From NCBI GenBank assembly GCA_964483665.1, contig CAZACP010000001.1, positions 141,896-205,895 of the forward strand: a stretch of DNA of 64,000 nucleotides, written 5' to 3'. Within the stretch, counting starts at the first letter, position 1. Each line of letters opens with the position of its first letter. The notes below the pieces were generated by a model. It was not told the origin of the DNA. It saw nothing but the letters and a program-made list of their open reading frames with translations, and made no database searches. This document shows positions 1,151 to 2,854 of this stretch, one piece after another. Both the position numbers and the translations under genes were made by a program. The DNA comes from an uncultured Candidatus Saccharibacteria bacterium. GTDB lineage: Bacteria; Patescibacteriota; Doudnabacteria; UBA920.

Positions 1151-1239
1151 TAAATTTGATTAATTGTTTTAGTGTAATTTTATAAGTTTGAGCATCTTTG
1201 CGCAATTAATTTAAAACACCAGCATAACTGGTGTTTTAA

Positions 1240-1316
1240 TGGCGGGACCGGCGGGGCTCGAACCCGTAACCTCTCACGTGACAGGCGAGTGCTCTAACCA
1301 ATTGAGCTACGGTCCC
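1240..1316 (-). tRNA. tRNA-Asp (anticodon GUC)
   Basis: Minus-strand cloverleaf. Acceptor GGGACCG/CGGTCCC, anticodon stem CTCGC/GTGAG with loop CTGTCAC (GUC), T-loop GGTTCGAGCCC, encoded CCA. Confidence 0.9.
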
Positions 1317-1332
1317 ATAATGTATTTTACTT

Positions 1333-1409
1333 TGGTAGCGGAGAGTGGAATTGCACCACTGACCTTGGGCTTATGAGTCCCACGCTCTAACTAACTGAGC
1401 TACTCCGCC
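1333..1409 (-). tRNA. tRNA-Met (anticodon CAU); elongator Met or possibly Ile2-lysidine type
   Basis: Minus-strand. GGCGGAGTAGCTCAGTTAG... anticodon loop CTCATAA, T-loop GGTGCAATTCC, encoded CCA. Confidence 0.85.
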
Positions 1410-1626
1410 AAAAATACCTTGTATGATATTTAAAAACCTGCGTACAGCAGGAAAAAGCTGTCACGTAAATTTTGTCGCATTCGCAACCACGGATCAACTG
1501 TGATGGGGTAAGGGGCATTGTCCTTAACGTGTGAGGAATAGACTTCTAGTCTATTTTCAAAGGAGTAACGGACAATTGACCCGTGGTTGCGGGACCCGGA
1601 CTCGAACCGGGAACCTTCAGGTTATG

Positions 1627-2400
1627 CTTGCCACTACAATTTTCATTGCTCCCTAAATTTAGGGATTTGGGGTCTGGACTTTCTCTTCACCCTCGTGCAA
1701 TAAACTGATTTTCGCTCATTCCGATTTAAAAACCGGCGTTCACTCAATTCGTTTTTGCTCTTTACGGTGGGGTGCCTACCATTAAGTCTCTACACCTGCC
1801 TTCGTCAAGACTTCGGCAGGCAGGCCTTCTTAATTAAATAAGAAAAGGCTGCTTTCAATCCGAAGTTTTGGCGTAGGATTGGCTCGGGATTACCACCGCC
1901 AGGAGGCTTCCCCGAATTTGATAGGTTTTCATACCGAAGTTACCTTCGGTATAGCCCATTCTGTTATTAGTTCAAACGCATTTCGATAGTCGGCGGATTT
2001 TGGTTTTCTCTGACGCTTGTCAGATTCAACCAGGCTAATCGTACTACCGAACGATATAAAAACATCAAGCGGAAACACATAAAAAATATGAGTTTCTGGA
2101 ATATATACAACCGCAAAATCAAAATCATTAGCTTTATAGGCTTCCCGGCGCATAACGCGTCGGTTTGTCTTGGTTCGACGCACATCCACAAAATAAGATT
2201 TGTATTTGCCGTCGTACCAAGCGCATTTGACTTGCAATTTTACAAGCTTTCCTAACACATCGGCTATTAGGTCATAAGGCATTCGGTCGCCAATGGGCTT
2301 AGAAACACCCCGCCTAATTGCAAAAGCTTTAGAACGGTAGCTTGTTCAGCTATATCCCCTTTCGCTTTCGTTATCATAAGTAGCTAATAACAGGAATTTG
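1627..2400 (-). mobile_element. group I intron (774 nt) inserted in the anticodon loop of tRNA-fMet
   Basis: 5' exon ends in U and the intron ends in G (omega-G). Internal elements resemble group I R/S consensus (GTAGAGACTTAA; AAGAGAAAGTCC). Contains an ORF. Confidence 0.75.
1929..2282 (-). CDS. intron-encoded ORF (117 aa), putative homing endonuclease
   Basis: Entirely inside the tRNA-fMet intron. By analogy to intron-encoded endonucleases in cyanobacterial tRNA-fMet introns. Family not resolved by eye. Confidence 0.55.
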   Translation of the reverse strand: MPYDLIADVLGKLVKLQVKCAWYDGKYKSYFVDVRRTKTNRRVMRREAYKANDFDFAVVYIPETHIFYVFPLDVFISFGSTISLVESDKRQRKPKSADYRNAFELITEWAIPKVTSV

Positions 2401-2532
2401 AGCCTGACGAGCTGCCAATTGCTCTATCCCGCGATATAACTAACCAACATAAATTATATAGAATAATGTCCTTTTTGGCAAGTTTTTTAATATTAGGCCG
2501 GTTGTTGCCGCAGCGCTTAAATATTTTAAGTA

Positions 2533-2568
2533 ACCAAAAACCGTCCTGATTTTGGGACGGTTTTTGGT
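2533..2568 (-). terminator. strong hairpin (13-bp stem accaaaaaccgtcc/ggacggtttttggt) downstream of the small peptide ORF
   Basis: Perfect inverted repeat seen in sequence. A second hairpin lies at ~2575-2600. Confidence 0.4.
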
Positions 2569-2621
2569 ATCCTCCACCTCCATCAGATGACGGAGGGCGG
2601 AGAAAGTTTTTTTAAAGAAGA

Positions 2622-2690
2622 CTAGCGGCGCTTCTTTTTGCCGCCTTTTTTCTTTGCAGTCTTCTTTGCAACTTTTTTCTTCTTAGCCAT
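2622..2690 (-). CDS. tiny lysine-rich basic peptide (22 aa: MAKKKKVAKKTAKKKGGKKKRR)
   Basis: ATG preceded by GGGAGAAAG SD-like sequence. Followed by two strong hairpins. Not in the ORF track (too short). Confidence 0.35.
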   Translation of the reverse strand: MAKKKKVAKKTAKKKGGKKKRR

Positions 2691-2854
2691 TTTGGGCTTT
2701 CTCCCTTGAAAGTACTTAACGAAAATTTTTGGCTAAATACTTTCTTAATTTTCTACTCCCCCAATAATGGGGATTAGTAGTATGGTTTTATTTTCTTTCT
2801 GTTTTTCTACAAAATTTATTTTCGTTTCAGTAAAACTTTTACATTAATTTTATT

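Follow-up and report, generated by a model that had tools for sequence, protein, structure and literature searches.

The closest described system to the locus reported here is the tRNA-fMet intron of Synechocystis sp. PCC 6803, which is 655 nucleotides (nt) long and carries an open reading frame (ORF) of 150 amino acids (Bonocora & Shub 2001, as cited in PMC1995217). Its endonuclease, I-Ssp6803I, and the close homologues of this enzyme were described in 2012 as "generally encoded in cyanobacteria" (PMC3384342). More recently, Nakagawa et al. (2026) surveyed 4,934 complete genomes and recorded 333 tRNA group I introns. In that survey, 33/34 is a known site of tRNA-fMet introns, PF11645 endonucleases within tRNA-fMet came from two Cyanobacteriota only, ORF-less IC3 fMet introns of Bacteroidota were catalogued, and no IC-type tRNA intron was found among Patescibacteria (PMC13011429). 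In this study, we analysed a stretch of 64,000 nt (the window) from an uncultured Candidatus Saccharibacteria bacterium (assembly GCA_964483665.1, contig CAZACP010000001.1, positions 141,896 to 205,895). We conclude, with a probability of roughly 90%, that the initiator tRNA-fMet gene of this stretch is split between U33 and C34 by a group I intron of the Synechocystis family, which most likely still splices and can no longer home by itself. The element belongs to a known family in a new host lineage and is not a new kind of element; since the survey found no IC-type tRNA intron in Patescibacteria and, within tRNA-fMet, this endonuclease family only in Cyanobacteriota, the window case extends the host range.

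The split gene is read on the minus strand, and its parts are as follows.

2453 to 2481, minus strand: sigma-70-like candidate promoter, TTGCCA-17 nt-TATAAT, with 11 of 12 consensus matches
2401 to 2433, minus strand: tRNA-fMet exon 1, positions 1-33 (acceptor 5' strand, D arm, 5' strand of the anticodon stem, C32 and U33)
2404 to 2401, minus strand: GGCU, the last four nt of exon 1, forming the 5' strand of P1
1627 to 2400, minus strand: group I intron of 774 nt with an IC3-like core at tRNA position 33/34 (RF00028 and comparative structure)
1584 to 1626, minus strand: tRNA-fMet exon 2, from C34 to the encoded CCA76

Joining the minus-strand segments 2433..2401 (33 nt) and 1626..1584 (43 nt) yields a 76-nt initiator-type tRNA-Met(CAU), which consists of exon 1 CGCGGGAUAGAGCAAUUGGCAGCUCGUCAGGCU and exon 2 CAUAACCUGAAGGUUCCCGGUUCGAGUCCGGGUCCCGCAACCA. 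The joined sequence folds into a cloverleaf (-29.9 kcal/mol, RNAfold) and is called tRNA-Met(cat) by ARAGORN. Aligned with E. coli tRNAfMet, it agrees at 62 positions and needs one gap. Position 1:72 is unpaired owing to a C1xA72 mismatch, and the D stem (GAGC/GCUC) contains A11:U24, an initiator feature in E. coli tRNAfMet. Additionally, the anticodon loop reads CUCAUAA, the 3' CCA is encoded, and the anticodon stem contains A29-U41, G30-C40, and G31-C39, which gives two of the three consecutive G:C pairs expected of an initiator. In the genomic sequence, the split gene was missed by both ARAGORN and the Rfam tRNA model. Position 1:72 is paired in tRNA-Met(CAT) at 1333..1409, the neighbouring gene, which leaves the split gene as the sole initiator-type tRNA in the window; it is probably also the sole one of the genome. 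Four further assemblies contain the 1.1-kb locus unchanged, and two more contain it at 99.7% and 99.1% identity, in no case with a gap; its recurrence across six independent metagenome assemblies excludes an assembly artefact. By consensus match, the promoter-like site, with its -10 element ending 19 nt before the start of the tRNA, is the only one in 1200..2750, and it would presumably drive transcription of the split gene.

A U precedes the intervening 774 nt (2400..1627), and their last nucleotide is a G. The Rfam model RF00028 matches 1978..1651 on the minus strand with 64.6 bits against a gathering score of 50 (expectation value, E, 7e-16). This score depends on the filter mode: the 'gathering' mode returns 64.6 bits, and the 'evalue' mode on 8 kb returns a 22-bit partial alignment. 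A single permissive Rfam scan of 1500-2500 would wrongly imply that no confident group I match exists.

We aligned 77 homologous introns from the guide sequence through exon 2, cyanobacterial loci (L023, L048, L053, L067, L077, L080, L083, and L090) being among them. The alignment contains long invariant blocks that extend to the cyanobacterial loci. From it, RNAalifold predicted P2, P3, P4, P5, P6/P6a, P8, and a three-helix P9 domain, with compensatory changes in 40 of the 56 predicted pairs. RNAalifold also paired GGGC of the guide with GUCC of the P7 3' strand, which we treated as an artefact of omitting exon 1 and pseudoknots. The structure that was finally tested had this one spurious helix removed and the P7 pseudoknot added in its place. 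In this structure, 97.3% of cells are standard-paired, compared with 33-43% when the partners are slid by 1-3 columns, and changes on both sides occur in 41 of 57 pairs. The covariation score is 0.50, compared with 0.19 in shuffles, and none of 500 shuffles reaches the observed values. By computation, the intervening sequence is a group I intron, and the alignment supports P2 to P9 and a P3/P7 pseudoknot. Its structural features are given below, where L010 denotes the related locus in the Saccharibacteria metagenome-assembled genome (MAG) GCA_964484145.1.

1932 to 1951, minus strand: P2 hairpin UACCGAAG-GUAA-CUUCGGUA with a GNRA loop (9 of 9 pairs compensatory, 97.5% of cells paired)
1920 to 1925, minus strand: P3 5' strand CCUAUC, whose partner is GGUAGG at 1780..1775 (6 of 6 pairs covary, 99.1% of cells paired)
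1884 to 1915, minus strand: P4-P5 domain, with P4 UCGGGG/UCCCGA and P5 GCC/GGU (99.1% of cells paired, mostly invariant)
1794 to 1883, minus strand: P6/P6a with a lineage-specific insertion of about 72 nt
1784 to 1788, minus strand: P7 5' strand GACUU, whose partner is AAGUC at 1681..1677, forming a pseudoknot with P3 (100% of cells paired)
1775 to 1780, minus strand: P3 3' strand GGUAGG (covariation with the P3 5' strand)
1688 to 1774, minus strand: P8 CACCC/GGGUG with an extension of about 60 nt in common with L010 (4 of 5 pairs covary)
1677 to 1681, minus strand: P7 3' strand AAGUC
1631 to 1672, minus strand: 3' domain with the enclosing helix CCCC/GUGG, P9 CCCUA-AAUU-UAGGG, and P9a GCAAU-GAAA-AUUGU (comparative structure)
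1627, minus strand: omega-G, the terminal intron guanosine (a G precedes CATAAC in every related split gene)

P7, the guanosine-binding helix of group I introns, contains one covarying pair (UA in 63 sequences, GC in 13, and CG in 1). Typical introns of the family measure 640-700 nt, and the window intron reaches 774 nt because of the 72-nt P6a hairpin insertion and the P8 extension of about 60 nt. The P6a insert folds into an extended hairpin (-28.6 kcal/mol) and is missing from L010. L010, in turn, carries about 80 nt of additional insert in P8 beyond the shared extension (L010:3500-3720 compared with the window). Neither the P6 nor the P8 insert behaves as a repeated mobile element in the window, where both are single-copy, and the peripheral loops P6 and P8 appear to be hot spots of insertion and deletion. 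The IC3 label rests on sequence similarity, the core motifs matching those of introns labelled IC3 in Table S5 of PMC13011429.

A preliminary description of the stretch had proposed an initiator tRNA-fMet formed by 2401..2433 and 1584..1626 and interrupted in the anticodon loop by a 774-nt group I intron that starts after a U and ends with a G. Its coordinates proved exact, the exon halves refolded as a cloverleaf on recheck, with C1xA72 in place, and the nucleotides at the junctions are U2401, the last of exon 1, and G1627, the last of the intron. The RF00028 scan that it had named as a check bore out the intron at 64.6 bits.

Several observations weigh against a split gene that is still in use. 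The examined stretch covers 64 kb, and a second, intact initiator tRNA gene might lie elsewhere in the genome. The large lineage-specific insertions in P6 and P8 could affect folding. One C·U mismatch, present in two sequences only (the window and L010), interrupts the helix that encloses P9. P1 comprises just 4 bp, two of them wobbles; short P1 helices occur in tRNA introns, where the anticodon stem helps to hold the exons. Furthermore, the run of G-C pairs in the anticodon stem is two long instead of three. The relatives in Patescibacteria are alike (CAAGG/CCUUG), and the deviation is, as judged from these stems, typical of the lineage. The limited stretch, the peripheral insertions, and the mismatch, together with an endonuclease that is already decaying, would fit a dead gene, in which the P6 and P8 insertions, for instance, have abolished splicing of the intron and whose role an intact initiator tRNA gene elsewhere has taken over. 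We consider this explanation very improbable. Exons 1 and 2 are undamaged and match those of L010 exactly, all columns invariant in the 77 introns are kept (by definition), and the core helices pair. The differences among strain variants (3 and 9 in 1.1 kb) fall in the 5' flank, the P6 insert, and one ORF position, sparing the conserved core, and a near-consensus promoter is in place. Moreover, the small genomes of Patescibacteria are generally thought to be poor in duplicate tRNA genes, which further counts against a spare initiator gene.

The intron that we take to be still splicing contains the remains of an endonuclease gene.

1929 to 2377, minus strand: homing endonuclease pseudogene of the I-Ssp6803I/PF11645 PD-(D/E)XK family, in the loop closed by P1a
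2311 to 2312, minus strand: frameshift site with one T missing, TTAGGC-GGGG compared with TTAGGCTGGGG in the intact relative (alignment with L010)

The endonuclease ORF lies in two frames, 2377..2267 (36 amino acids) and 2282..1929 (117 amino acids). An approximate, hand-repaired protein matches PF11645 over profile positions 1-137 of 138 (E 2.7e-43) and PDB 2OST, the structure of I-Ssp6803I, over residues 3-145 (E 4.3e-49), with about 60% identity as counted from the alignment. This repair used ...GGVFSKP..., the correct reading being ...GWGVSKP..., and the database matches are far too strong to be affected. The loss of the T at codon 23 causes a stop after 36 codons and removes the nearly invariant Trp23, so the window lacks an intact frame of about 149 amino acids, and the 1-nt deletion is kept in the six independent assemblies. 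The closest database protein is an intact 149-amino-acid ORF in L010, which has the same gene neighbourhood; it is 95% identical to the correctly repaired window protein and 93% identical to the first repair. Between the repaired and the intact ORF, the synonymous divergence (dS) is 0.30 and the nonsynonymous divergence (dN) 0.027. The resulting dN/dS of 0.09 indicates that purifying selection acted for nearly all of the divergence and that the frameshift is recent. Based on these comparisons, the window ORF is a pseudogene of the family and not a functional member, its state is most likely an early stage of homing-endonuclease decay, and this intron copy has probably lost the capacity for independent mobility. 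The preliminary description had rightly seen kinship with the endonuclease-bearing tRNA-fMet intron of cyanobacteria and the presence of an ORF; the 1-nt deletion that splits this ORF into two frames had gone unnoticed there.

One might argue that the endonuclease is still made, by -1 ribosomal frameshifting, by transcriptional slippage at GGGG, or from an internal ATG at 2282, and that the intron therefore remains mobile. The downstream frame is open for 117 codons and keeps the family-invariant D36, Q49, and K51 (as PYDLI and LQVK), residues that are presumably catalytic to judge from the family name, and the frameshift lies beside a run of four G. However, no plausible recoding signal was found at the frameshift: a canonical slippery heptamer is missing, and a four-G run is short for slippage. 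Even with a -1 shift here, the nearly invariant Trp23 would be missing, and the internal start would drop 32 N-terminal residues, including eleven family-invariant positions. The open downstream frame is also explained by a recent mutation, given the dN/dS of 0.09. Continued production of the enzyme is thus very improbable.

The elements that would align the exons of the intron lie at both ends of the endonuclease ORF.

1953 to 1959, minus strand: internal guide sequence AUGGGCU (complementarity to the exons read from the sequence)
2384 to 2393, minus strand: P1a 5' strand CUGUUAUUAG, intron nt 8-17 (perfect 10-bp complement of 1970..1961)
1961 to 1970, minus strand: P1a 3' strand CUAAUAACAG, directly 5' of the guide

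P1 (4 bp, one of them the U-1·G wobble) is formed by GGCU of the guide and GGCU of exon 1, and P10 (3 bp) by AUG of the guide and CAU of exon 2. U2401, the last nucleotide of exon 1, stands opposite a G of the guide, G1627 directly precedes exon 2, and GGGC of the guide is invariant in all 77 aligned introns. Two other pairings were considered and rejected. GGCCUG at about 1823..1818, a perfect complement of CAGGCU in the exon, lies inside the P6 insertion and is missing from L010 and all relatives. A P1 formed through AGCU at intron nt 16-19 would place A instead of G opposite U-1 and is unconserved. Across 78 loci, the P1a strands have a median duplex energy of -13.25 kcal/mol in cognate pairs, compared with -7.6 in non-cognate pairs; among the non-cognate pairs, only 8% are as stable as the cognate median, and the lineages use different sequences. 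The ORF-less 244-nt cyanobacterial introns have the same P1a helix capped by a short loop, which indicates that the endonuclease ORF fills the terminal loop of P1a. The last 18 codons and the stop of the ORF overlap the P1a 3' strand, the guide, and P2, and the guide's UGG GCU codes for Trp141-Ala142, two nearly invariant residues of the endonuclease. A junction at 34/35 or 35/36, which the CA shared by the intron 5' end and the exon 2 start permits as a 2-nt ambiguity with the same tRNA from all three junctions, is extremely improbable, since only 33/34 sets U-1 opposite the invariant guide G together with a G at the intron 3' end, AUGGGCU matches GGCU|CAU in this register, and 33/34 is the published tRNA-fMet site (PMC13011429). 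The last two points likewise uphold the U33|C34 junction of the preliminary description.

With splicing at 33/34, the locus would work in the following manner. Its own promoter would give rise to a precursor transcript of about 850 nt. In this transcript, P1a (10 bp) would close the ORF-bearing loop of about 410 nt, thereby bringing the 5' splice site to the guide AUGGGCU. The short P1 (GGCU/GGCU, with U-1·G) and P10 (CAU/AUG) would then align the exons, probably assisted by the anticodon stem UCAGG/CCUGA, as in other tRNA introns. Within the P3-P9 core, guanosine would be bound in P7, and two transesterifications would follow, ending at omega-G 1627. Splicing in vivo would thus release a tRNA of mature sequence.

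We scanned a genome collection with the protein family of the ORF and carried out the locus analysis on the best 80 loci. In total, 407 species genomes encode a relative. A complete tRNA-fMet split at GGCT|...G|CATAA is present in 78 of these 80 loci. In a 79th (L015), the contig end cuts the locus, and exon 1 and the core motifs are present. The element thus lies in or beside a tRNA-fMet split at 33/34 in 79 of the best 80 loci, which carry at least 12 phylum-level labels. The labels are Saccharibacteria, Doudnabacteria, Uhrbacteria, Sungiibacteriota, Bacteroidota, Chloroflexota, Nitrospirota, Acidobacteriota, Omnitrophota, Pseudomonadota, 'Deltaproteobacteria', Methylomirabilota, Actinomycetota, and Cyanobacteria. 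In 48 of 75 cases, the phylum label is shared with the nearest endonuclease neighbour; the other 27 include cross-label pairs at 71-96% identity, at least two of the 27 being translation artefacts (L042 and L050, with zero identity). Some cross-label pairs probably reflect mis-binning of MAGs. The endonuclease of L088 ('Patescibacteria group bacterium') is 96% identical to that of L070 (Methylomirabilota), and the L088 exons are not of the Patescibacteria type. Similarly, the exons of L042 ('Thermoanaerobaculia') are identical to those of Bacteroidota loci. The L088 and L042 contigs are probably mis-binned, and phylum counts drawn from MAG labels need care.

The window protein is 95% identical to its Saccharibacteria relative, 69-71% identical to the best other Patescibacteria, and at most 67% identical to proteins of other phyla. 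Because its nearest relatives are other Patescibacteria, the element lineage has been in this group for some time, and any transfer across phyla would be ancient. The preliminary description had read the locus as a sign of horizontal intron mobility; a recent transfer between phyla does not hold up. Its view that such genes are known from a few cyanobacteria is outdated, given at least 12 phylum-level labels and the earlier cataloguing of ORF-less 33/34 introns outside cyanobacteria. A phage vector finds no support: only two IMG/VR contigs contain relatives (54% and 42% identity), and cultured phages give only partial matches at 31-36%. One of the viral contigs, L091 (IMGVR_UViG_3300037088_000797, 178 kb), encodes the 54%-identical relative within 1501-1995, and this endonuclease stops 2 nt before an uninterrupted tRNA-Met(CAT) at 1923-1995.

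In nine genomes, the tRNA-fMet intron is ORF-less and 243-305 nt long: L048, L053, L077, L080, L081, L083, and L067 are cyanobacteria or unclassified, and L022 and L064 are Bacteroidota. In each of the nine, a free-standing I-Ssp6803I-like gene shares the strand of the tRNA and lies downstream of it, at a distance of 53-139 nt except in L067, where it is 806 nt. In L053, for example, the exons end at 1118 and start at 1362, and the endonuclease gene occupies 1501-1947. This arrangement looks like an endonuclease outside its intron and might be an intermediate stage at which intron mobility is gained or lost.

We lean slightly towards a broader reading, in which the intron and its I-Ssp6803I-type endonuclease would form a pan-bacterial mobile element that has repeatedly crossed phyla by targeting the near-universal anticodon stem-loop of the initiator tRNA and has entered even the reduced genomes of Patescibacteria. 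The window would then show this element with its endonuclease just dead and its host still dependent on the ribozyme for what is probably its sole initiator tRNA.

To relate the window intron to known systems, we compared its gene, site, and core with theirs. Like the Synechocystis tRNA-fMet intron, it interrupts the same gene at 33/34 and carries the same endonuclease family, with the ORF at the same place in the P1 loop. Its core aligns with tRNA-fMet introns from other cyanobacterial genera, which stand in for the Synechocystis sequence. In contrast to Synechocystis, the host belongs to Patescibacteria, the intron is 774 nt long with P6 and P8 inserts, and the ORF is frameshifted. Moreover, the anticodon stem is UCAGG/CCUGA in the window and UCGGG/CCCGA in the Synechocystis system, so the homing site would differ at two symmetric positions. 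The corresponding target in an intron-less gene is as follows.

Target sequence in intron-less Saccharibacteria tRNA-fMet: GCTCGTCAGGCTCATAACCTGAAGG

The window intron also shares the 33/34 site and near-identical core motifs (AAAUUCGGGGAAGCC, GGUAAUCCCGAGCCAAG, GGUGUAGAGACU, and GGGUGAAGAGA.AGUCCAGAC) with the ORF-less IC3 fMet introns of Bacteroidota and Cyanobacteriota, which differ in being 244-305 nt long and in having no ORF in the P1 loop (PMC13011429, Table S5). Similar to the Patescibacteria introns within tRNA-Asn and tRNA-Asp, it is an anticodon-loop intron in the same host phylum that is missed by standard tRNA finders, whereas those introns lie at 35/36, belong to subgroup IA, and in some cases carry HNH endonucleases (PMC13011429). 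The Azoarcus tRNA-Ile (36/37) and Anabaena tRNA-Leu (34/35) introns occupy other tRNAs and positions and have no endonuclease gene. As a lead rather than a test, we take the window intron to resemble these IC3 introns in its compact core, its short P1 aided by the anticodon stem, the GNRA loop on P2, and the GAAA loop in the P9 domain.

Further features flank the split gene.

1437 to 1451, minus strand: terminator-like hairpin CCUGC-UGUAC-GCAGG followed by UUUUU (pattern match)

This hairpin sits between the split tRNA and the next tRNA-Met gene. A perfect 11-nt inverted repeat on the minus strand joins 1581-1591 (CGCAACCACGG, the tRNA 3' end plus 3 nt) to 1482-1492 (CCGUGGUUGCG). The partner lies about 90 nt downstream of the tRNA 3' end, where the sequence differs in L010, and the repeat may be due to chance or may be a strain-specific processing structure. 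Directly upstream of the tRNA-fMet promoter-like site, a lysine/arginine-rich ORF of 22 codons (MAKKKKVAKKTAKKKGGKKKRR) occupies 2622-2690 on the minus strand, with GGGAG ahead of it (read by eye); it falls below the 30-amino-acid minimum of the ORF listing. It is followed at about 2535-2560 by a hairpin, CCGUCC-N8-GGACGG, and UUUUU, which is not among the terminator-scan matches.

The window case leaves the known workings of group I introns and homing endonucleases unchanged. It does show a tight overlap of protein coding and ribozyme structure, in which the guide UGGGCU doubles as the conserved Trp-Ala codons. Furthermore, the intact copy in GCA_964484145.1 and the freshly frameshifted window copy, at about 95% amino-acid identity, form a natural pair for the decay phase of the homing cycle. 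Because standard tRNA finders miss the split gene, the genome would seem to be without an initiator tRNA, and the same annotation gap concerns the other species genomes with the element, which number at least several hundred. Collectively, these results extend a classic mobile intron of cyanobacteria to Patescibacteria and many other phyla. If the pan-bacterial reading is true, it would contradict recent claims that endonuclease-bearing tRNA introns are very rare and that their horizontal transfer is infrequent, as well as the recent claim that Patescibacteria have no IC-type tRNA introns.

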